A stretch of DNA of 64,000 bases from Christensenellales bacterium (GTDB taxonomy: Bacteria; Bacillota; Clostridia; Christensenellales; UBA3700): assembly GCA_051883415.1 (NCBI GenBank), contig JBJETR010000072.1, positions 118,217-182,216 on the forward strand, in the 5' to 3' direction. The position numbers and the translations under genes are program-made. The notes under the pieces were generated by a model. That model ran no database searches and was not told where the DNA came from. It was given only the letters and a program-made list of their open reading frames with translations. Of this stretch, positions 15,610 through 62,851 are shown piece by piece (the stretch's first letter is position 1; the number at the start of each line of letters is the position of its first letter).

Positions 15610-15637
15610 ATTATAGCACAATATAATATGTTGTCAA
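15610..15637 (-). promoter_or_regulatory. Sigma-A promoter of dfx (TTGACA-16 nt-TGcTATAAT)
   Basis: On the plus strand TGTCAA is at 15632..15637 and ATTATA at 15610..15615. An 8-bp inverted repeat overlaps it (see findings). Confidence 0.65.
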
Positions 15638-27675: not shown

Positions 27676-27772
27676 TTATTTACTCTAAATATTATATTAA
27701 CATAAAAATATGTAAATGGCAATATCTATTTTGAAACAAGCCCCTAGGGCAAGCTTATGGGATAATACGCAA

Positions 27773-27800
27773 TAAGACTCTCCGAGTGTGGAGAGTCTTA
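27773..27800 (-). terminator. Probable terminator hairpin after the methyltransferase gene
   Basis: TAAGACTCTCC (27773..27783), 6-nt loop, GGAGAGTCTTA (27790..27800). The trailing U-tract on the minus strand is weak (UUGCGUAUU). Confidence 0.5.
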
Positions 27801-27830
27801 TCTTTTCACTATGGTGTCTTTATTATTTTT

Positions 27831-28502
27831 TCATTTTATCGCAACGATAACTGCAAATTTTTGATTGCTATACACGCATTTGACTATATCGAATTGACTA
27901 TTTTTCAGCATATTCACCTCGGTTTCTACCGAGCATTCCTTATCTAGCAATCGTCTTTGGCGCCACAACTCTATATCTCTCTCGGTAAGATTGCTTTGTT
28001 GTAACTTTGTTATCCAAGTGGCGTCGTACCACTCGTTGAGTGTAGCTTCTCCTGCCGAGAATTGGTCGTAGTTGACTAGCATTCCGCCCTTTGGCAATCT
28101 ATCGTATATCTTCTCAAACAACTCTTTCTTTTGTTGGTCTTCCAAATGGTGTATGGAGAGTGCCGAAATAATTACGTCAAAGTCGCTATCCGGCAAGCCT
28201 TGCGTATAGTCGCCCACTAGGTATTGCACTCTGTCGTCGCCCTCAAACCTAAGGCGTGCTACGTCCAACATATCTTCCGCAAGGTCAACCAGAGTAAAGC
28301 TCGTATGCTTACATTTTTCTTGCCAAAAGCTCGTCAACAAGCCCGTACCTGCACCCAAGTCGACTACTCTCTCGGGCTCGCCGTAGTTGGATATAATAAA
28401 GTCGGTTGCCCCTTCGTAAAAATCTTGAAAGCACGGTATAAAAATCTTGCGTTTGGCATCGTATTCTTTGGCAATCATATTGAATTGACTGCGAATATCC
28501 AT
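27831..28502 (-). CDS. Class I SAM-dependent methyltransferase, substrate unknown
   Basis: 223 aa. Motif I VVDLGAGTGLLT, a post-I acidic residue (LVDLAEDM) and IISALSIHHL. The ATG lies 1 nt after the trxB stop. Confidence 0.85.
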   Translation of the reverse strand: MDIRSQFNMIAKEYDAKRKIFIPCFQDFYEGATDFIISNYGEPERVVDLGAGTGLLTSFWQEKCKHTSFTLVDLAEDMLDVARLRFEGDDRVQYLVGDYTQGLPDSDFDVIISALSIHHLEDQQKKELFEKIYDRLPKGGMLVNYDQFSAGEATLNEWYDATWITKLQQSNLTERDIELWRQRRLLDKECSVETEVNMLKNSQFDIVKCVYSNQKFAVIVAIK

Positions 28503-28503
28503 A

Positions 28504-29424
28504 TCAGCCCCTCACGTACTCCACTGCACCGAGTGCGGCAACGGTGCCGTCGGCTACTGCCGTGGTGAGTTGACGGATATGCTTGACTCTGCAATCTCCC
28601 GCTACCCATACGCCGTCCAGATTGGTTTTGCAATCTTCGCCCGCTAATATATATCCTTGGTCGTCCATATCTACTTGACCTTGCAACATATCGGTATTAG
28701 GTATCTTTCCAATAGCCACGAATAGTCCGCTCACGTCTAGTCGTCTGCTACCACCTTGCTTATCCTTGACGATTACGCCTTGTAGGCAATCTTCGCCCTC
28801 CAAGGCATCTACCGTATAGCCGAGCACAAATTCTACGTTAGCCTTGCTCCTAAGCTGTTCCACCTTGATTTGCTCGGCTCTAAACTCGTTCCTGCGATGT
28901 ACCAAATACACTTTGGAGCAACGCTCAGCCAAAAAGAGTGCGTCGTCGATAGCGGTATTGCCACCACCCGATACGGCAACGGCTTTGCCCGCAAAGAAGG
29001 CGCCGTCGCATATAGCGCAATAGCTTACGCCACAGCCGAACAAGTCCTCTTCTTTTTTTACGCCGAGTTCTCTCGACTTAGCGCCGACTGCTATAATTAC
29101 GCTCTTTGCCTGATAGGTAGCGTTGCGAGTTGTTACCGTCTTGACGTCGCCGACAAGTTGCACCGACCTCACGTTTTCACGCCTTATTTCCGCACCCAAA
29201 GCCTTGGCTTGCTCAGCCAAATCGTCGGAGTATTGCATTCCGCTGATTTTGGCTATAGCGGGATAATTCTCTATCTCGGGTGTATTGCGGATTTGACCGC
29301 CCACCGCCATTGCTTCTAGCACAAGAGCTTTTTTGCCCGCTCTTTGCAAGTATATCGATGCGGTAAGACCTGCCGGTCCTGCGCCTATAATTATTGTATC
29401 GTACATATCTCTCCTATAAGACAA
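28504..29424 (-). CDS. trxB: Thioredoxin-disulfide reductase (low-Mr, NADPH type)
   Basis: 306 aa. FAD motif IIIGAGPAGLTA, redox CAICDG, NADPH motifs GGGNTAIDDA and HRRNEFRA, and C-terminal GDC. Confidence 0.93.
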   Translation of the reverse strand: MSYRRDMYDTIIIGAGPAGLTASIYLQRAGKKALVLEAMAVGGQIRNTPEIENYPAIAKISGMQYSDDLAEQAKALGAEIRRENVRSVQLVGDVKTVTTRNATYQAKSVIIAVGAKSRELGVKKEEDLFGCGVSYCAICDGAFFAGKAVAVSGGGNTAIDDALFLAERCSKVYLVHRRNEFRAEQIKVEQLRSKANVEFVLGYTVDALEGEDCLQGVIVKDKQGGSRRLDVSGLFVAIGKIPNTDMLQGQVDMDDQGYILAGEDCKTNLDGVWVAGDCRVKHIRQLTTAVADGTVAALGAVEYVRG

Positions 29425-29468
29425 AAGTAAGTGCTAAGACTTACTTTTGTCGACCTGTATTGAGTTTT

Positions 29469-31838
29469 TTACGCTTCTAGGTATTTTTTGATTTTCATAA
29501 CGCCTGCGTATTTGTTGATTTGTCCGTCCTTGACAACCACCAAAGTAGGCACTTGCATTATTCCGTATTTCATCGACATATCTTCGTTGGCTTCGGCGTC
29601 GACCGGCTTATAATTTACGCCTGCCGCTTGCAACTCTTCTTTGGCGATTGGGCAGTTAGGGCATCTGGTGGTAGTAAAGAGATATACTCCGTCTTGCTCT
29701 TCGACTTGTGCCACAGGCTCTTCTTTGAGCTGAGCGGTACAGCAGTGCTTTGCGCTCATCTTAGAGTTGGCGATATCGTAAACCTTTCTATTCTTGAACT
29801 CTGCCAGCTTACCGTCGTTCCAGTTTTGGACAGGTCTGTAGTAACCCGTAATTCTGCTATAGACTTCCGCAGGTTTGCCACAGATAGGACACTTGTAGTG
29901 CTCGCCTATGATATAGCCGTGGTCGGCACATATCGAATAGGTAGGGCTCATAGTGTAATATGGCAACTTGTAGTTCTCCGCAATCTTTCTAACGAGGTTG
30001 GCGGTAGATTGCCAATCAGGAAGCTTCTCGCCGAGGAATGCGTGGAATACGGTACCCGAGGTGTATAGCGTTTGTAGCTCGTCTTGCACGTCGAGAGCCT
30101 CGAAGATATCTGCAGTATAGCCTACAGGCAAGTGAGAGCTGTTGGTGTAGTAAGGCGTTCCGTTCTCGGCGTCGCTGGCGGTGATGATATCGGGATAACG
30201 CTTTTTGTCGTGTTTAGCGAGTCTATAAGAGGTCGACTCTGCAGGAGTAGCCTCGAGGTTGTAGAGGTCGCCATACTTCTCTTGATAGTCGGATAGTCTG
30301 TTGCGCATATGGTTGAGCACGTCTTTTGCAAACTCTTGCGACACTTTTTCGGTCAAGTCCTCACCAATCCACTTAGCGTTGAGGCAAGCCTCGTTCATAC
30401 CCACAAGACCTATGGTTGAGAAGTGGTTGCTAAAGGTGCCGAGGTATCTCTTGGTATAAGGATAGAGTCCCTCTTCCAACAACTTGGTGATGATATCTCT
30501 CTTGTTTTTGAGGCTTCGAGCCGCAATATCCATCATTCTGTCAAGACGAGCGTAGAACTCTTCTTCGTTCTTGGACAAATATGCGATACGTGGAAGGTTG
30601 ATGGTAACTACGCCCACCGAGCCGGTGCTCTCGCCACTACCGAAGAAACCACCCGATTTCTTTCTGAGTTCTCTAAGGTCGAGTCTAAGTCTGCAGCACA
30701 TACTTCTTACGTCGCTTGGCTCCATATCGCTGTTGATATAGTTGGAGAAGTAAGGGGTGCCGTACTTGGCAGTCATCTCAAACAAAAGTCTGTTGTTTTC
30801 GGTGTCCGACCAATCGAAGTCCTTGGTGATAGAATAGGTAGGGATAGGATATTGGAAACCTCTTCCGTTGGCATCGCCCTCAATCATGATTTCGATAAAC
30901 GCCTTGTTGACCATAGCCATCTCGTCTACGCAGTCTTTGTATTTGAAGTCAACTTCTTTTCCGCCAACGATACAGTTCTTTTCTGCAAGGTCGGCAGGGA
31001 CAGTCCAGTCAAGGGTGATATTGGTAAACGGAGCTTGCGTACCCCAACGGCTAGGGGTGTTGACGCCGTAGATAAAGGATTGCAAGCATTGCTTAACCTC
31101 TTTGTAGGAGAGGTTGTCTATCTTGACGAAAGGAGCAAGGTAGGTGTCGAAGGAGGAGAAGGCTTGCGCGCCTGCCCATTCGTTTTGCATGATACCGAGG
31201 AAGTTGACCATTTGGTTGCAAAGCGTAGACAAGTGAGCTGCAGGTGCGGAGGTAATCTTACCTCTGATTCCGCCCAAACCTTCTTGAATAAGTTGTCTAA
31301 GCGACCAACCTGCGCAGTAGCCGGTAAGCATCGACAAGTCGTGGATATGAATGTCGGCGTTGCGGTGTGCGTTGCCGATTTCTTCATCGTAAACTTCGCT
31401 GAGCCAGTAGTTGGCGGTGATAGCGCCCGAGTTGGAAAGGATAAGTCCGCCGACGGAATAGGTGACGGTGGAGTTCTCTTTTACACGCCAATCCTCGAGT
31501 TTTACGTAGCTGTTGACAAGGTCCTTATAGTCGAGGATAGTCGACTTCATGTTACGGATTTTTTCTCTTTGTTTGCGGTACAAAATATACGCTCTTGCAA
31601 CGTCGGTATAACCCGATTGTTCCAAAACTGCCTCTACGCTGTCTTGAATGCTTTCTACGGAGATTTGGTTGTCCTTAATCTTTGGTTCAAAGTCCGCGGT
31701 AACTCTCAAAGCAAGCGTCTCGATGATGCTTGGAACGTATTGTCTGTTTTGCGCAACGAAGGCTCTTTCGATAGCTTTGCTTATTTTGCTAAGGCTGAAT
31801 TCTACTATTTCGCCATCTCTTTTTACTACTTGGTACAT
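29469..31838 (-). CDS. nrdD: Anaerobic ribonucleoside-triphosphate reductase (class III, NrdD) with an N-terminal ATP-cone and a fused C-terminal thioredoxin/glutaredoxin-fold CxxC domain
   Basis: 789 aa. ATP-cone (VVKRDGEIVEF), NrdD core, Zn ribbon CPICGKPAE, and glycyl-radical motif SRITGYYRPV. A further ~100 aa follow, ending in a 73-aa redoxin fold (GVYLFTTTRCPNCP...VPTLVV) encoded at 29472..29690. Confidence 0.93.
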   Translation of the reverse strand: MYQVVKRDGEIVEFSLSKISKAIERAFVAQNRQYVPSIIETLALRVTADFEPKIKDNQISVESIQDSVEAVLEQSGYTDVARAYILYRKQREKIRNMKSTILDYKDLVNSYVKLEDWRVKENSTVTYSVGGLILSNSGAITANYWLSEVYDEEIGNAHRNADIHIHDLSMLTGYCAGWSLRQLIQEGLGGIRGKITSAPAAHLSTLCNQMVNFLGIMQNEWAGAQAFSSFDTYLAPFVKIDNLSYKEVKQCLQSFIYGVNTPSRWGTQAPFTNITLDWTVPADLAEKNCIVGGKEVDFKYKDCVDEMAMVNKAFIEIMIEGDANGRGFQYPIPTYSITKDFDWSDTENNRLLFEMTAKYGTPYFSNYINSDMEPSDVRSMCCRLRLDLRELRKKSGGFFGSGESTGSVGVVTINLPRIAYLSKNEEEFYARLDRMMDIAARSLKNKRDIITKLLEEGLYPYTKRYLGTFSNHFSTIGLVGMNEACLNAKWIGEDLTEKVSQEFAKDVLNHMRNRLSDYQEKYGDLYNLEATPAESTSYRLAKHDKKRYPDIITASDAENGTPYYTNSSHLPVGYTADIFEALDVQDELQTLYTSGTVFHAFLGEKLPDWQSTANLVRKIAENYKLPYYTMSPTYSICADHGYIIGEHYKCPICGKPAEVYSRITGYYRPVQNWNDGKLAEFKNRKVYDIANSKMSAKHCCTAQLKEEPVAQVEEQDGVYLFTTTRCPNCPIAKEELQAAGVNYKPVDAEANEDMSMKYGIMQVPTLVVVKDGQINKYAGVMKIKKYLEA

Positions 31839-31875
31839 CTTATTTTACTCCCCTTAAATTTTTCACTGTACAACC

Positions 31876-31904
31876 ATTATAAAACAACATATTGGGCTTG
31901 TCAA
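31876..31904 (-). promoter_or_regulatory. Perfect-consensus sigma-A promoter of nrdD (TTGACA-17 nt-TATAAT)
   Basis: On the plus strand TGTCAA is at 31899..31904 and ATTATA at 31876..31881, with a 17-nt spacer. About 37 nt upstream of the nrdD ATG. Confidence 0.75.
31882..31897. promoter_or_regulatory. NrdR box (proximal, within the promoter spacer)
   Basis: AAACAACATATTGGGC. I count 12 of 16 matches to the NrdR consensus acaCwAtATaTwGtgt. Its centre is 32 bp from the centre of the distal box. Confidence 0.6.
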
Positions 31905-31913
31905 GAGCAAAAA

Positions 31914-31929
31914 ACACAATATCTTGTAT
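31914..31929. promoter_or_regulatory. NrdR box (distal)
   Basis: ACACAATATCTTGTAT. I count 14 of 16 matches to acaCwAtATaTwGtgt. The tandem arrangement at 32-bp centre spacing is the classical NrdR architecture. Confidence 0.75.
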
Positions 31930-31972
31930 ATTTTGAGATTTTACATATAACCTTATCGAGAGTACGTTTTTT

Positions 31973-32012
31973 AGCAAAAAGCACGCATTTCGACCAAATT
32001 CGCCCTGCGTGC
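31973..32012 (-). terminator. Terminator-like hairpin after nrdG, separating it from nrdD
   Basis: GCACGCA (31981..31987), 18-nt loop, TGCGTGC (32006..32012). The A-run at 31976..31980 gives UUUUU on the minus strand. Confidence 0.55.
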
Positions 32013-32075
32013 CTAATTGTATGTAATTAATATAATACCTCTCTGTTATTTTGTTATTTGGCTCACGCCTAACGA

Positions 32076-32771
32076 TTAAAATACTCCTCTAAGGTGGGTA
32101 GGTATTGACCTCTCTATCAGCAATGCTTGAAACTCTTTCATTTCTTCGTCGCTACAAGCCTCGAGTCCTTTGGCAATAGTACTGCCCGAGTCCACGAACT
32201 TTTGCAAAAAATACTTCTTTGTCCCCTTAATCCAATCTGCAATAGCCAACATATCTTCTGCGGTGTGCAACTGTTTGACTACCGTGGTGCGGAACTCGTA
32301 ATCCACCCTTCCCTCAAGGAGCAATTCCACGCTCTTTTTGACGCCCGACAGGTCGAAGTTTTTGATGCCGACGGTACGAGGGTAAGCCTCGGGACTGTTT
32401 TTGATATCCATAGCCACGTAATCGACGAGCTTGTTGTCGATAAGCTTTTTGAGAGTTTCGTAGTTGCTTCCGTTGGTATCGAGCTTGACCAAAAAGCCTC
32501 TTGCCTTAATCTCTTGCATAAACTCGGCAAGGTCGGGTTGTAATGTAGGCTCTCCGCCCGTTATGCACACACCGTCAAGTAAACCTTGTCGCTTGGCGAG
32601 ATAATCGAATATCTCTTCTTTGCTAATCAATGGTTGGGAAGAAGGATCCAAAACCAAAGTCGAGTTGTGACAAAACGGACAACGCATATTGCATCTGCCC
32701 GTAAATACCGTACACGCCGTCTTGCGATCATAATCCACCAAGGTCAATTTGTTAAGTCCGTGTATTTCCAT
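32076..32771 (-). CDS. nrdG: Anaerobic ribonucleoside-triphosphate reductase activating protein (radical SAM)
   Basis: 231 aa. CNMRCPFCHN cluster motif and GVCITGGEPTLQ. The gene lies upstream of nrdD rather than downstream. Confidence 0.9.
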   Translation of the reverse strand: MEIHGLNKLTLVDYDRKTACTVFTGRCNMRCPFCHNSTLVLDPSSQPLISKEEIFDYLAKRQGLLDGVCITGGEPTLQPDLAEFMQEIKARGFLVKLDTNGSNYETLKKLIDNKLVDYVAMDIKNSPEAYPRTVGIKNFDLSGVKKSVELLLEGRVDYEFRTTVVKQLHTAEDMLAIADWIKGTKKYFLQKFVDSGSTIAKGLEACSDEEMKEFQALLIERSIPTHLRGVF

Positions 32772-32913
32772 AGTCGTATAGTCCTTATATTGATATAGAT
32801 ATATTATACAATATTATTTGCTTTTTTCAATACCTATTTTTAATAGAGCGTAGTAGTCGTTGTCATACCGAAATGTATTAGCCCCGCCGCACAAGCAGGG
32901 AGCGTACCGCCAA

Positions 32914-41348: not shown

Positions 41349-43277
<1,929 letters not shown>

Positions 43278-47152: not shown

Positions 47153-48583
47153 TTATTCTGCAGGGTTAGCCTTGATATAGGATTCTTTGTCGGCTTCGGT
47201 CATAAACTTAGGCAGCAATCCGTCTTTGGTTTCGGTGCTCTCCTCGTATCCGCTGACAATCTTTCCTTCGGCTTTGTTTTCAACGCCCTCAGTCACACTA
47301 TAAGTCGTGTAGTCGAGTCTATATAGATAATTGTAGTTGTTGCCGTCGATATAATAGACAAAGTTAGCTAGTTTGACAGGTTTAAGCCAAGAAGTCGAAA
47401 GGTTTTGCTCACTAATTTTCTCCTCGCTTGGCACATCTGCCTTATAATTCATTCTCATAAGCACGTTGGATATCACGTAATATACGTAGTCACCTTCGAA
47501 GAATAGTACCGTAGGAGCAGAAGAAAGAGTAATCTCCTTGTCCACGTCGTTGACGTTGGCTTGTTCGGATATCGGCTTGTAAAGCTTGACTGTGGCAGAA
47601 GAAACGTCAAGTATACCGTTTTCAAATCCAACAGGTACGAAGTTGCTTACGGAAGATACCGCATATTTCTTTTCCAAAGTCTTGTCAACAGCGGTGAGGC
47701 TATCAAACTTGTATCCGTACGTGCCTACCGCAGATGCCGTGTCGTTGTCGGTCTTAGAATAATACAAAACCTTCTCATCCTTATCATATTTGATAAGCGA
47801 GATGCTCTTTTGCTCTTTGAGAGTTGGCGTTTCACCCGAAGCATAGGTAGTGTCGCCAATGATTTTGATAGGTTCGGAGTTGCCGTCCAAAGCCCAAACC
47901 TCGTTGTTGTTGAGCGTCTTGTTTTCGCTGGCTTTGGTATAGAAGACGATATTGCTTTGAGCGGTAAAGAGCGAGCCCGTCACGTCAGAAGCAATCACGC
48001 TTTCTTTGCCTATCTTCTTGTCGGTGTACTCAACCTTCTTTAGGTCGGTGCCGTCCACGTAAATGAGCGCAGTTGCGGTAAAGGTAAACTTGACGGACGT
48101 ACCTTCGATAATTGCTATCGATTGGGTTTTGCTACCGTCGAGCTTGCTGCGCATATATTCGAGGCTGCTCGTCAACACGTTGCCGTATTTGTCGGTTTGG
48201 GTACTTGGTGAGCAATAGTAGAGCCACTCGCCGAAGATATAAATGCCCGCTTGATTGTTAGCGGTATAGTAGGTCTTAGGTACGACTACCGCCGTATCGC
48301 TCAAGGTGCCGTCAGAGTTGATTTTGCTCTTCATAATGCTACCCTTGACGCTTGCTTTGCCGAAATGGTTATCCTCAGGTTTAGTTATGTTGGCGGTATC
48401 GTCCATGCCGTTGACGTAATAGAGATAATCGCCTTGTTTAACGACCATAGCGCCGTTGTTTTCTACTTCTCCCGTCGTAATAGGGCCGATAGGTCCCCAC
48501 TTAAAATTTTGACAGCCAACCAAAGCAAGAGCTATCGTTGCCACCATCAAAACTATCAAAATCGACTTGGTAAACTTTGTCAT
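47153..48583 (-). CDS. Lipoprotein with repeated beta-propeller-like blades (DUF5050-like)
   Basis: 476 aa. Lipobox LALVGC after a signal peptide. Recurrent blade motifs: GDYLYYVNG, GEWLYYCSP, ALIYVDG, KVLYYSKT, GDYVYYVIS, NFVYYIDG. Confidence 0.7.
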   Translation of the reverse strand: MTKFTKSILIVLMVATIALALVGCQNFKWGPIGPITTGEVENNGAMVVKQGDYLYYVNGMDDTANITKPEDNHFGKASVKGSIMKSKINSDGTLSDTAVVVPKTYYTANNQAGIYIFGEWLYYCSPSTQTDKYGNVLTSSLEYMRSKLDGSKTQSIAIIEGTSVKFTFTATALIYVDGTDLKKVEYTDKKIGKESVIASDVTGSLFTAQSNIVFYTKASENKTLNNNEVWALDGNSEPIKIIGDTTYASGETPTLKEQKSISLIKYDKDEKVLYYSKTDNDTASAVGTYGYKFDSLTAVDKTLEKKYAVSSVSNFVPVGFENGILDVSSATVKLYKPISEQANVNDVDKEITLSSAPTVLFFEGDYVYYVISNVLMRMNYKADVPSEEKISEQNLSTSWLKPVKLANFVYYIDGNNYNYLYRLDYTTYSVTEGVENKAEGKIVSGYEESTETKDGLLPKFMTEADKESYIKANPAE

Positions 48584-60823: not shown

Positions 60824-62851
60824 TCAAAATCCTATCTTCTTATCAGATACGTCGTATCTAAATTCCTTATCGTTGCAAGCGCTCAAAAAGTCCTCTTTTT
60901 TAAGACACACTTTCTTACACTTAGCTAGTTGGCTACGCATAGCCGCTTTTGCCCACGTCCTTTCAAACAAGTTACGCACAAATCGTGCATTGCTAAATTC
61001 CTTGGTGCTAAGCATTTTGTCAGGAATAGCCAAGAAGTACTCCTTGGCGCAATCCAACAAATCTTCGCTATAGCTAAACTTGCCGCGGAGCATATCGCAA
61101 AAGATATCATACAACTGCTCTCTGCTAAAGTTAGGGAACTCGATTACGTATGGCATTCTGCTAGCTAGTCCCGCATTGCCTTTCATCAATTTTTCCATAT
61201 CGTCGGTATATCCAGCCATAATTAGGACCATTTCCGAACGATGATTTTCCATCTCGGCAATCAAGGTGTCCAACGCCTCTCTACCGAAGTCCCTGTCGTT
61301 ATCATCGCCTCTGAACAATGAGTATGCCTCGTCGATAAACAATACCGAGCCGTAAGCGTCACGACACATACTTGCAGTCTTTGGCGCCGTTTCTCCTATG
61401 TATCTTCCGCAAAAATCTCTGCCTTGATATTCATAAAAATTGCCTATCTTCAAGACGCCCTTTTCCTTGAGGATTTTGCCCAAAATTCTTGCGAAAGTCG
61501 TCTTTCCGGTACCGGGATTGCCGACAAACCTCATGTGTATACAAGGAGCCGACAACGTGTTTTCTTTTCTTAGCAGTTCTATCTGCGCAATAATCTCCTC
61601 GAACTTCCTCTTAACCTCTTCTCCGCCCACCAACTTGCCTAGCATTTCGTAGCCGGACATACCTTCATCGTCTAGGTGATGGCATATACCTTTAGCTTGA
61701 TTTTTGCCGATAACGCTGTTTGGCTTTTTTGAATTGGCGTTGTGCAGACGTTTTTTGTATATCAATTCCATAGCGACTTTTTTGATAGTATTGACACCAT
61801 AGAATTTGCCGTCGCTCTTTTCTTCTACTATGCGTTGCTGGAACATTTTCCAAGCATCAGGCGTAAGTACAAAATTTTGTTCCTCAAAAATCTTATTGGC
61901 ACAAGCTTTGATCTCATCGTCGTTGAAAGGAACGAATGCAACACTTCTGACGAACATTATGTCGTTGATAGCGTCTTTGATTTTTTTGAGCACCTCGCTG
62001 TCCACAAACGGAACGCGAAAAATAACGATATACTTGCCTATCAACTTTTCTAAACAACGCAATAGACTCTTAAAAGTAGCGTCATTGAGGTTATCCAACC
62101 ATTCTCGTATATCTATACACAAGATTTTTATCTTGTCTTCGCCACTCGCCACAGCGTTATTCAAGTCCTTGATCAACTCTGCGACCTTAATTTTGTTGCT
62201 CGGATTAGGCATAGCAATTTCTAACACCGGCTTTTTAGAATTTATCTCAACGATATCGGTAGACTTTATTACTTTAGCCAATATTCTTAGATAGGTCGAC
62301 AAGCCGTAGCCGTCGTTGATAGCAAACAGGTAGCTTTGATACAAAAAAGGCATATTGTTTTTGCCTCCACGTATTTGCGGAGCAATTTTGACAATTTCGT
62401 CAATGAGCTTCTTAAAATCTTCTCCTCCCACCATATCGTCAAGGTCAGTTTGTATGCAGTCAACGCTATTTGTTGTGTTGTCGCCATTTCCGAATAGCCT
62501 TACCATAATTCTTTCAACGCCGGATTCGATAATTCTATTTTCTTCTTCCGTAATCGATGTATCACTGTCCTGCTCGGGCTCATCGGTCTTAACCAAGGTT
62601 AAATCCAATTTACAGTCATCATCGTCTTTGTATTTTTCACGGAGTATTGCGTGGACGGTAATCAAAATATTCTTACCTATTATTGCATCGTCGACGTCAA
62701 AGGTAATAGAGGTCGTGTCGGCTTCTATCACTTTAATTTCTTCTTTTAATATTTTTTCCAAATATTCTCGCACAACGACAATTGGCAATTTTTCGTCGTC
62801 TTTATGCTTCAGACACCATTCGTATTCCAACTCTAACGTAAATCTTTTCAT
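60824..62851 (-). CDS. AAA+ ATPase of the CbbX/SpoVK/EccA type, with an upstream degenerate AAA-like module and a novel N-terminal domain
   Basis: 675 aa. Walker A GNPGTGKT is encoded at 61499..61522 and Walker B VLFIDEAYSL near 61321..61350. CbbX/SpoVK-type motifs MAGYTD, LASRMPYVIEFPNF and FSNARFVRNLFE are present. An earlier module has FAINDGYGLST (62281..62340 region) in place of the P-loop. Confidence 0.85.
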   Translation of the reverse strand: MKRFTLELEYEWCLKHKDDEKLPIVVVREYLEKILKEEIKVIEADTTSITFDVDDAIIGKNILITVHAILREKYKDDDDCKLDLTLVKTDEPEQDSDTSITEEENRIIESGVERIMVRLFGNGDNTTNSVDCIQTDLDDMVGGEDFKKLIDEIVKIAPQIRGGKNNMPFLYQSYLFAINDGYGLSTYLRILAKVIKSTDIVEINSKKPVLEIAMPNPSNKIKVAELIKDLNNAVASGEDKIKILCIDIREWLDNLNDATFKSLLRCLEKLIGKYIVIFRVPFVDSEVLKKIKDAINDIMFVRSVAFVPFNDDEIKACANKIFEEQNFVLTPDAWKMFQQRIVEEKSDGKFYGVNTIKKVAMELIYKKRLHNANSKKPNSVIGKNQAKGICHHLDDEGMSGYEMLGKLVGGEEVKRKFEEIIAQIELLRKENTLSAPCIHMRFVGNPGTGKTTFARILGKILKEKGVLKIGNFYEYQGRDFCGRYIGETAPKTASMCRDAYGSVLFIDEAYSLFRGDDNDRDFGREALDTLIAEMENHRSEMVLIMAGYTDDMEKLMKGNAGLASRMPYVIEFPNFSREQLYDIFCDMLRGKFSYSEDLLDCAKEYFLAIPDKMLSTKEFSNARFVRNLFERTWAKAAMRSQLAKCKKVCLKKEDFLSACNDKEFRYDVSDKKIGF

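Follow-up and report, generated by a model that had tools for sequence, protein, structure and literature searches.

We found that NrdD, the class III ribonucleotide reductase (RNR) catalytic subunit in a gut Clostridia locus, carries a thioredoxin-fold domain fused to its C-terminus, that a thioredoxin reductase gene lies directly behind it, and that this NrdD-redoxin fusion is widespread and not unique to this locus. From the sequence and the structural models, we consider it probable that the enzyme is served at turnover by its covalently fused redoxin, which would in turn be fed by NADPH through the adjacent TrxB. The locus lies in a 64-kb stretch of DNA that was analysed as a whole (the window), with its genes in the following order:

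32076..32771, minus strand: nrdG, 231 aa, radical-SAM activase of class III RNR
29469..31838, minus strand: nrdD, 789 aa, class III RNR catalytic subunit with C-terminal redoxin fusion
28504..29406, minus strand: trxB, 300 aa, low-molecular-weight thioredoxin reductase
27831..28502, minus strand: methyltransferase gene, 223 aa, class I SAM type

All the genes described in the initial annotation are present and all are on the minus strand, with nrdG upstream of nrdD as it had reported, an arrangement (nrdG upstream on the same strand) also seen in 36 of 55 related loci. The nrdG product scores 210 bits on TIGR02495 (NrdG2; cut-off 131) and has a Radical_SAM Pfam match. The 64-kb window contains neither another trxB nor a further redoxin domain or ATP-cone (NrdR).

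NrdD is ordinary over residues 1-689, where an ATP-cone is followed by the class III core. The NRDD domain (PF13597) covers residues 121-687 (641 bits, cut-off 26), and the NCBIfam model NF006126 (1144 bits, cut-off 548) spans residues 1-689 only; therefore about 100 C-terminal residues are extra, in agreement with the earlier description of an extension of this length past the glycyl-radical motif. Along the protein, the following elements were located:

31563..31832, minus strand: ATP-cone, residues 3-92 (PF03477, 78.7 bits)
31314..31316, minus strand: Cys175, the beta-A cysteine, aligned with E. coli C175 and T. maritima C125 and invariant in homologue alignment A2
30690..30701, minus strand: finger-loop MCCR, Met380-Cys381-Cys382-Arg383, placed by alignment
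30252..30254, minus strand: Glu529, aligned with T. maritima Glu495 and invariant in A2
29880..29930, minus strand: zinc-ribbon ligands Cys637, His640, Cys650 and Cys653, all invariant in A2
29829..29858, minus strand: glycyl-radical motif SRITGYYRPV, residues 661-670, with Gly665 aligned with E. coli G681
29691..29774, minus strand: variable, predicted-disordered linker, residues 689-716, with Cys699-Cys700 at 29739..29744
29472..29690, minus strand: thioredoxin-fold domain, residues 717-789 (73 residues), with CPNC at 29652..29663 and cis-Pro764

Membership of class III is borne out by the NRDD domain, the RxxGY motif, the zinc ribbon, the radical and beta-A cysteines and the cognate nrdG. 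The zinc ligands align with the four cysteines of the E. coli site, the second ligand being here a histidine instead of a cysteine. In the finger loop, MCCR aligns with M382-G383-C384-R385 of E. coli and with S-C329-C330-R of T. maritima, which makes Cys382, opposite E. coli C384, the radical cysteine and places Cys381 beside it as a third active-site cysteine, the two matching T. maritima C329/C330; the string SMCCRL was found in 120/120 homologues among the matches listed. At the position of Glu529, T. maritima NrdD likewise has Glu, whereas the formate-type enzymes of P. copri and E. coli have Leu and Tyr, and from this pattern, together with what Wei et al. 2014 reportedly describe, we take T. 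maritima E495 to be the probable NrdD2-defining glutamate. The summary of the Wei et al. classification in PMC4493059 defines NrdD2 by a third active-site cysteine plus a glutamate, and, as judged by alignment, the active site has this thiol-reductant signature in Cys175, Cys381-Cys382 and Glu529. The comparison with formate-type and thioredoxin-type NrdD that had been proposed in the initial annotation thus returned the third cysteine and the glutamate of NrdD2, but the formate-type Met380 is also kept, and use of formate, or of both reductants, therefore has to be considered. In E. coli a methionine at this position supports formate-dependent chemistry, and most double-cysteine class III RNRs combine Met, Cys-Cys and Glu; Burnim et al. 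report that 83% of double-cysteine enzymes keep the methionine and thus hold components for either reductant, with formate, thioredoxin or both as candidates (PMC9669993). We found no biochemically studied MCCR-plus-Glu enzyme in the accessible literature.

The C-terminal extension had been described as a 73-aa redoxin at 29472..29690, and residues 717-789 indeed begin exactly at the first beta strand of our domain model. Three Pfam families match residues 711-785, each just above its gathering cut-off (Glutaredoxin 26.2/22.9, Thioredoxin_3 26.0/24.8, Thioredoxin 24.1/23.5, as score/cut-off). On the question whether the extension folds as a redoxin, the AlphaFold model of the domain (pLDDT 88.7) gives a thioredoxin fold, with the topology beta-alpha-beta-alpha-beta-beta-alpha (strands 12-17, 39-42, 60-65 and 68-73; helices 24-34, 47-52 and 75-83; model residue 1 is NrdD residue 706), and its top Foldseek matches are thioredoxins, with TM scores of 0.6-0.74. 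In the model CPNC (NrdD residues 726-729) opens helix 1, and the Pro-Thr of VPTLV (residues 763-767), which holds the cis-Pro, precedes strand 3. Between species the domain is about 40-55% identical; CPNC is kept in 79/80 species and Pro-Thr is invariant across homologues. Classical glutaredoxins are recognised by CPYC together with glutathione-binding motifs (GG-x-DD-like), and NrdH by CVQC with WSGFRP. The fused domain has CPNC and neither a WSGFRP-like nor a GG-x-DD-like motif, and the NCBIfam equivalogs for Grx, NrdH-like and Trx proteins all stayed far under their cut-offs, the best score being that of a YruB-family model (35.6 bits vs 88.6). A few stand-alone proteins of 73-91 residues belong to the same domain family. 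Querying a word index with the 98 residues that span linker and domain gave no matches.

The full-length AlphaFold model, built with 21 close homologues, reached a pLDDT of 58 and a pTM of 0.40, too poor for judging domain docking and reach or the placement of Glu529 in three dimensions, and was used for the C-terminal domain and for linker disorder only; residues 657-713 fall below pLDDT 50 in it. A close cysteine pair, mostly CxC, is present in the linker of 36/80 species and of 104/120 close homologues, and 27/80 species have no linker cysteine at all. Linker cysteines are associated with an adjacent trxB (33/62 vs 3/18, Fisher p = 0.007), an association confounded by phylogeny. We considered these cysteines as an obligatory shuttle and rejected this as a general rule, given the 27 species without any and the many linkers of only 3-8 residues among the IMG/VR fusions. 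Since just about every second species has the pair and the short-linker IMG/VR versions lack it, the pair is not essential to the family.

To place the fusion in its wider context we surveyed the best 80 species-level loci of 594 genome hits. The redoxin fusion is present in all of these best 80, which come from several Clostridia families and from Erysipelotrichaceae, and its carriers in culture include Clostridium symbiosum, Anaerocolumna aminovalerica and a Lacrimispora isolate. A trxB-like gene lies directly 3' on the same strand, with a gap of 5-278 nt, in 52/71 bacterial loci, and no other downstream gene is conserved among related loci. The fusion stands without an adjacent trxB in the other 19/71, 13 of them annotated as of Lachnospiraceae lineage. 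Viral contigs carry it as well: 40/72 NrdD relatives in IMG/VR keep the redoxin domain. None of the IMG/VR contigs examined has an adjacent trxB, and near the non-fused close relatives in IMG/VR no split form, with a stand-alone redoxin and trxB, was found within 3 kb. Retention of the domain on these viral relatives without a neighbouring trxB therefore points to selection together with NrdD itself. The initial annotation had proposed that a dedicated, attached redoxin and TrxB reduce NrdD; the fold, the active site and the conserved fusion and trxB neighbourhood all support this, but the word dedicated goes beyond the evidence, as Lachnospiraceae loci and IMG/VR contigs have the fusion with no trxB beside it.

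TrxB itself has the motifs of a low-molecular-weight NADPH thioredoxin reductase, which are defined as FAD GxGxxG, CxxC, GGGxxA and the NADPH motif VxxxHRRxxxR (PMC5627308) and are represented here by GAGPAG, CAIC (29008..29019), GGGNTA and VYLVHRRNEFR (HRRNEFR at 28879..28899). It matches solved thioredoxin reductases with E = 6e-75, and on the equivalog TIGR01292 its 339.3 bits fall just under the cut-off of 343.45. At the thioredoxin-docking position, where the canonical form is G[R/K]G, this TrxB has GCG and most syntenic homologues have GEG or GNG. The partner flavoproteins are of several types, with the NADPH-type HRR here, QNLD in most others and GDANTA/YTLFD in a third group. As the trxB-like partners of most other species are without the NADPH 2'-phosphate motif, the NADPH step may hold for this lineage only. 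The most likely start of trxB is ATG 29406 and not TTG 29424, since AGGAGAG precedes this ATG, the alignments to homologues and to solved structures begin at MYDTIIIG, and trxB starts at the same place in L081, an otherwise syntenic locus whose NrdD is 88% identical. With this start the distance to nrdD, given before as 45 nt, becomes 62 nt.

The methyltransferase ATG (28502) lies 1 nt past the trxB stop codon (28506..28504), just as first described. Its product matches Pfam Methyltransf_25 and is closest, among solved structures, to 3DTN and CysG/BelI, which makes it a candidate for the MM_2633 / CysG-BelI type (3DTN E = 7e-49 over residues 2-220; CysG E = 7e-34), and it contains SIHHLE, in which the two histidines of the HHD metal motif would lie. 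By tblastn it was found in 0/80 related loci, and we saw no link to RNR in any; L081 reads nrdD-trxB-lacZ. We tried the methyltransferase as a part of the system and rejected it, given its absence from the 80 loci and from L081 and the absence of any conserved gene after trxB. What had been called a coupled methyltransferase is thus coupled in that it is predicted to be co-transcribed here, but on comparison of the loci it is an incidental, lineage-specific insertion, unrelated to the nrdD-trxB module. The proposed survey of co-occurrence in this way upheld the fusion (80/80) and, in 52/71 loci, the trxB-like neighbour, but not the methyltransferase.

The predicted regulatory elements of the locus, in the direction of transcription, are:

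32803..32830, minus strand: nrdG promoter-like site, TTGAAA-16-TATAAT, 11/12 matches
31973..32014, minus strand: terminator-like hairpin with U5 between nrdG and nrdD, from RNA folding
31914..31929, minus strand: NrdR box 1, strong, 2 mismatches to ACACWATATATWGTGT, kept in L081
31882..31897, minus strand: NrdR box 2, weak, 12/16 positions matching, occupying the spacer between -35 and -10
31876..31904, minus strand: nrdD promoter, TTGACA-17-TATAAT, 12/12 matches
29420..29451, minus strand: AU-rich hairpin between nrdD and trxB, 13 bp, -16.3 kcal/mol, z = -3.4, without a U-run
27772..27801, minus strand: strong hairpin 3' of the methyltransferase gene, 13-bp stem, z = -6.8

Folding recovered the terminator-like hairpin that had been noted between nrdG and nrdD, a GC-rich 9-bp stem that encloses a further one of 3 bp and has UUUUUG behind it, which a consensus scan misses because its loop exceeds 8 nt. 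That nrdD has its own consensus promoter was likewise corroborated. Of the two NrdR boxes described there, the first is strong, and the second is weak, though retained in L081: it begins 32 bp after box 1, with the same 32-bp offset and a retained core CCCAATATGTTGTT in that relative. The NrdR-box scan gave 5 matches in the window as a whole, a total reached by 0/100 shuffles, and found no convincing box at the nrdG promoter-like site. The other box-like matches (15616, 42454, 47295 and 62463) were dismissed as chance, with 3 mismatches each and three of them within long ORFs. The hairpin between nrdD and trxB, absent from the initial description, is kept in L081, where one A-U pair is a G-U wobble. 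The transcription unit likely ends at the hairpin at 27772..27801.

Taken as a working model, these elements would be connected as follows. NrdG would place the glycyl radical on Gly665, and each turnover would then oxidise Cys175 and one of Cys381/Cys382 to a disulfide, with Glu529 as a putative proton relay. The flexibly tethered redoxin, through Cys726/Cys729, would re-reduce this active-site disulfide, either directly, through the linker pair Cys699/Cys700 or by reaching across the dimer in trans, and the flavoprotein TrxB would re-reduce the fused domain with NADPH. NrdR may repress nrdD at the gene's own promoter, and trxB and the unrelated methyltransferase gene would be transcribed by read-through from nrdD.

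Other roles for the fused domain could be considered. It could serve activation and maintenance, keeping the cysteines of the zinc-ribbon/glycyl-radical domain reduced for NrdG, especially after oxygen, while formate is the turnover reductant. Its attachment right behind that domain, with linkers of a few residues in many IMG/VR fusions, would fit such a role, as would the kept Met380 and a report, as cited in PMC4390871, that thioredoxin is activating for E. coli NrdD. We nevertheless regard it as unlikely, since activation only would leave unexplained the extra cysteine and the glutamate, present in all members and absent in formate-type enzymes, and the zinc site here offers just three cysteines and one histidine. 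Equally improbable, in our judgement, is an enzyme with two reductants, which would use formate when present, through Met380/Cys175 thiosulfuranyl chemistry, and the TrxB-redoxin pair as a back-up when formate is poor. The co-occurrence of Met, Cys-Cys and Glu in this NrdD, and the frequency of that methionine in double-cysteine enzymes (PMC9669993), speak for it, but no dual-use enzyme is known, and a permanent redoxin fusion together with a conserved reductase gene suggests that reduction runs mainly by the thiol route.

That the neighbourhood is incidental, trxB being a housekeeping thioredoxin reductase near nrdD by chance and the fused domain an inert remnant, seems to us very improbable. 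The 19 loci without trxB beside the fusion would agree with it, and the check for a second trxB or trx gene covers the 64-kb window. Against it, synteny is maintained in 52/71 species of several families while all other neighbours vary, CPNC and the cis-Pro persist despite the low identity of the domain between species, and the partner reductases are non-canonical at the thioredoxin-docking position. Turnover reduction by the fused redoxin is the reading that we prefer, and the signature and synteny suggest an electron path from NADPH that would be independent of formate. A further idea, which we put forward tentatively and consider possible but doubtful, is that nrdD::redoxin-trxB forms a portable module that supplies class III RNR with electrons on its own, in which many lineages have a CC/CxC linker pair (here Cys699-Cys700) and the partner flavoprotein has been swapped or remodelled between lineages.

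Among the closest known systems is the NrdD2 of N. bacilliformis, whose reductant, according to the summaries of Wei et al. 2014 in PMC9669993 and PMC4493059, is thioredoxin with its reductase and NADPH. The two share the adjacent finger-loop cysteine pair, the beta-A cysteine and the active-site glutamate, which implies a thiol-disulfide reductant. They differ in that our NrdD has MCCR and not SCCR, belongs to a different sequence family, NF006126/PRK08270, is only remotely similar to T. maritima NrdD, the homologue with a solved structure (phmmer E = 1e-43), and, as read here from sequence, has its redoxin covalently fused and its reductase gene adjoining. The formate-dependent NrdD1 enzymes of E. 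coli, phage T4 and Prevotella copri (PMC11226230) likewise have the ATP-cone, barrel, zinc ribbon, glycyl-radical motif and NrdG, and a methionine ahead of the radical cysteine, but they have MGCR with a single cysteine, no glutamate at the position of Glu529, no redoxin domain and the gene order nrdD-nrdG. Methanosarcina barkeri NrdD3 resembles the present system in being a class III RNR served by a small redoxin of glutaredoxin-like kind that has a reductase of its own; according to Wei et al. 2015, as cited in PMC5704485 and PMC9176816, this redoxin is NrdH-like and the reductase is a ferredoxin:disulfide reductase. NrdD3, however, has QCCR without Glu and Met, its redoxin is separate, and as reductase it has an iron-sulfur enzyme that depends on ferredoxin, whereas here the reductase is the flavoprotein TrxB. 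Fusion of a small redoxin domain with part of an RNR is also known from F. ignava, where Grx fused to NrdB is a working RNR reductant (2018, PMC6187632); that fusion is N-terminal, on a class I radical subunit and glutathione-dependent, while ours is C-terminal, on a class III catalytic subunit, without visible glutaredoxin or NrdH signatures and paired with TrxB. The same paper lists, without analysis, a grx::nrdD fusion in one genome (entry TWA4), the one, uncharacterised, mention of an NrdD-redoxin fusion that we found in the searchable literature. The linker pair, present as CC/CxC in about half of the species, recalls RNRs in which a flexible C-terminal cysteine pair stands between the catalytic barrel and an external redoxin.

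A natural and widespread redoxin fusion with a conserved neighbouring reductase gene argues strongly, on genomic grounds, for the thiol route, and the fused NrdD offers a convenient one-polypeptide system for testing it. The arrangement suggests an oxygen-sensitive RNR that would be recharged by NADPH-derived electrons rather than by formate. If partners are indeed swapped between lineages, anaerobic dNTP synthesis would be tied to different electron donors among gut Clostridia and their phages. Since gut Clostridia are rich in the module and the fusion is also found on viral contigs, the arrangement bears on DNA-precursor synthesis in many anaerobes and phages, and on the electron donor that limits it.

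The class III RNR NrdD of the window ends in what modelling predicts to be a minimal thioredoxin fold of glutaredoxin size, and its gene is one of four that lie in tandem on the minus strand from 32771 to 27831. At 99% identity, the nearest proteins in the databases belong to MAGs of Christensenellales and Clostridia.

32771..32076, minus strand: nrdG, class III RNR activase of 231 aa (TIGR02495, 210 bits vs a cut-off of 131)
31914..31929, minus strand: NrdR box 1, 2 mismatches
31882..31897, minus strand: NrdR box 2, 12/16 positions match
31838..29469, minus strand: nrdD, 789 aa, with an ATP-cone (residues 3-92) and NRDD core (121-687)
29739-29744, minus strand: linker pair Cys699-Cys700 of NrdD
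29420-29451, minus strand: 13-bp AU-rich nrdD-trxB hairpin without a U-run, z = -3.4
28504-29406, minus strand: trxB from its most likely start, with GAGPAG, CAIC, GGGNTA and VYLVHRRNEFR motifs
27831-28502, minus strand: class I SAM methyltransferase, 223 residues

NCBIfam NF006126, the model of this NrdD family, is satisfied by residues 1-689 alone, and the last ~100 residues are therefore an add-on. Residues 711-785 match Glutaredoxin, Thioredoxin_3 and Thioredoxin, each barely over the Pfam gathering score, and a strict label of 'glutaredoxin' or 'thioredoxin' over-reaches, because none of the NCBIfam Grx, NrdH and Trx equivalog models comes near its cut-off on the domain. The redoxin fold that the initial annotation had claimed for this extension was recovered when residues 706-789 were modelled from 23 homologues (pLDDT 88.7), with a predicted beta-alpha-beta-alpha-beta-beta-alpha topology in which CPNC opens helix 1 and Pro764-Thr765 stands directly ahead of strand 3; the nearest solved structures in Foldseek are thioredoxins (TM 0.6-0.74). 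In the full-length model only the redoxin domain and the ATP-cone are confident, and residues 689-713 fall within a segment of pLDDT <50, as would be expected of a flexible tether.

Aligned with NrdD from E. coli (formate type), P. copri and T. maritima (structural model, thiol type), Cys175 corresponds to E. coli C175 and T. maritima C125, and the finger loop Met380-Cys381-Cys382-Arg383 (MCCR) to E. coli M-G-C384-R and T. maritima S-C329-C330-R. Glu529 has Glu495 as its T. maritima counterpart, presumably the Glu that defines NrdD2, the thiol-reductant subtype; P. copri has Leu here and E. coli Tyr. The native T. maritima numbering agrees with Tyr124 and Cys125 of PMC4493059, and P. copri NrdD has been shown to need formate (PMC11226230). 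A passage of PMC4493059 defines NrdD2 by a third Cys plus a Glu, adding that 'some also have a Met'. The proposed scoring against formate and thioredoxin types found both this Cys and this Glu, with Met380 also kept, and on its residues the window enzyme fits the NrdD2 definition. The C-terminal zinc site (29880-29930) reads Cys-x2-His...Cys-x2-Cys (C637, H640, C650, C653), residues invariant in our alignment of NrdD homologues; E. coli NrdD has four cysteines there.

The fusion is widespread. SMCCRL occurs in 120/120 of the homologues listed (785-950 aa) and the C-terminal CPNC in 119/120. One of these proteins, P0019 (950 aa), contains an exact internal duplication of ~160 residues, WGTQAPFTNITLDW to INMPRIAYL, probably an assembly artefact and no real variant. 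A search with the C-terminal 238 NrdD residues, in which each GTDB species was represented by a single genome, gave 594 relatives, and the best 80 all carry the fusion (80/80), in genomes labelled Lachnospiraceae, Oscillospiraceae, Acutalibacteraceae, Christensenellaceae, Butyricicoccaceae and Erysipelotrichaceae. Carriers include the cultured Anaerocolumna aminovalerica DSM 1283, [Clostridium] symbiosum ATCC 14940 and a Lacrimispora isolate, and MAGs of Blautia, Dorea and Mediterraneibacter. Between families the NrdD core is 80-85% identical, and the redoxin domain, NrdG and TrxB only 40-55%; despite this the redoxin keeps CPNC (79/80) and the Pro-Thr. Among these best 80, nrdG precedes nrdD in 36/55 loci, and in 52 of the 71 loci with enough flank the next gene, 5-278 nt downstream and in the same orientation, is trxB-like. 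In Lachnospiraceae-type loci without trxB and nrdG, the fused nrdD adjoins a downstream thymidylate synthase gene (L022:3967-5422, L046, L059), and in L022 also dihydrofolate reductase, forming a small dNTP-synthesis cluster.

As for the second proposed neighbour, the methyltransferase was found in 0/80 of the related loci, and the gene 3' of trxB varies in nearly all genomes. That it starts 1 nt past the trxB stop was confirmed, but we found no reason for the supposed coupling to ribonucleotide reduction. It reads as a recent, lineage-specific insertion into the trxB-lacZ gap, because in L081, a syntenic relative whose NrdD is 88% identical, the gene directly after trxB is the beta-galactosidase gene that in the window comes after the methyltransferase. 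Among solved structures the methyltransferase is nearest to MM_2633 (3DTN, E = 7e-49), CysG and BelI, the latter two being metal-dependent carboxyl O-methyltransferases (PMC11408123) whose His-His motif it retains (SIHHLE).

Upstream, nrdG has a promoter-like site of its own and, on its 3' side, a hairpin plus U5, in line with its suggested separate termination, and nrdD has the claimed consensus promoter, a perfect TTGACA-17-TATAAT. Of the two NrdR boxes described there, box 1 is strong; box 2 is weak, yet we accept it because it fills the -35/-10 spacer, begins 32 bp after box 1 and has its core kept in L081. Four other NrdR-consensus matches in the window with 3 mismatches each (15616-15631, 42454-42469, 47295-47310, 62463-62478; three within long ORFs) are probably chance. 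The trxB start most likely lies at ATG 29406 rather than at the ORF lister's TTG 29424: the ribosome-binding site AGGAGAG precedes it, alignment with TrxB homologues and solved structures begins at MYDTIIIG, and L081 trxB starts at the same point. Because trxB would begin there, the gap after nrdD is 62 nt, not the 45 nt first given. The hairpin in this gap is kept in L081 (8400-8431), with one A-U pair as a G-U wobble, and could fix the ratio of nrdD to trxB expression or make the nrdD mRNA more stable.

Against solved structures TrxB hits thioredoxin reductases (E = 6e-75), and it lies 4 bits under the TIGR01292 cut-off. We aligned it with 53 syntenic TrxB-like proteins (for example L004:6735-7631 and L053:4402-5298, from fusion loci), which fall into three types, all with thioredoxin reductases as best solved-structure matches. 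The window and 8 other loci have HRR[DNTA]xFR, which fits the NADPH 2'-phosphate motif of PMC5627308; the majority have QNLD where HRRD is expected; in the third type GDANTA and YTLFD replace both NADPH motifs. At the position of the canonical thioredoxin-docking G[R/K]G, the window protein reads GCG and most others GEG or GNG; CAVC or CAIC stands at the redox motif in place of CATC. Because of these three types, an NADPH to TrxB step seems reasonable for the window and may not generalise; the electron donor may differ between lineages.

The NrdD linker is acidic and otherwise unconserved. A close Cys pair is present in 36/80 species and 104/120 of the close homologues listed (CxC in 32 cases, with a few CC or CxxC), and Cys makes up 4.3% of linker residues vs 1.7% of the core. 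The pair is commoner with an adjacent trxB (33/62 vs 3/18, p = 0.007), a difference confounded by phylogeny. Class I and II RNRs have similar shuttle cysteines at the C-terminus (PMC9531940, PMC5704485); the linker pair could be a shuttle dithiol, not a universal one. Its being essential to the family is ruled out, as it is missing from 27 species and from most versions on viral contigs.

In IMG/VR viral contigs we found 72 relatives, 40 of them fused and none with an adjoining trxB. Many of these fusions have no ATP-cone (matches begin near residue 100) and linkers of only 3-8 residues (L093, L096-L101, L105-L112, L115, L118, L129, L147), and some redoxin domains carry CPKC or CPRC. In L103 (1363-2493) an in-frame insertion of ~375 residues, CLHPDTEV to ILTGN, splits NrdD exactly between the Met and the Cys-Cys of the MCCR loop and looks like an intein at the catalytic cysteines; similar split matches occur in L104, L110, L154 and L155.

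The best-supported reading, which we hold to be moderately probable, is that electrons would pass from NADPH to TrxB, then to Cys726/Cys729 of the tethered domain and on to the active-site disulfide, with Glu529 as a putative proton relay in its re-reduction. A purely incidental neighbourhood of the fusion and trxB is spoken against by the sequence data. The main rivals are that the domain activates or maintains the adjoining zinc-ribbon and glycyl-radical module, formate being the reductant, or that formate and thiols are both genuinely used; MCCR-plus-Glu enzymes own components for either formate or thioredoxin (Burnim et al., PMC9669993).

The proposed NADPH-TrxB-redoxin path has precedents. 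Thioredoxin-dependent class III RNR is known from N. bacilliformis, and an operon-encoded redoxin and reductase pair serves that of M. barkeri, according to passages of PMC9669993 and PMC4493059 for the former and of PMC5704485 and PMC9176816 for the latter. An RNR-fused redoxin has been shown to work in F. ignava NrdB, and one grx::nrdD entry is given for Lachnospiraceae bacterium TWA4 (PMC6187632). The literature searchable here held no account of the fusion's breadth, the nrdG-nrdD::redoxin-trxB order, the linker cysteines or the variable reductases. A NrdD-redoxin fusion is unsurprising in principle, but it allows the reductant question of MCCR-type class III RNRs to be put to a direct test.
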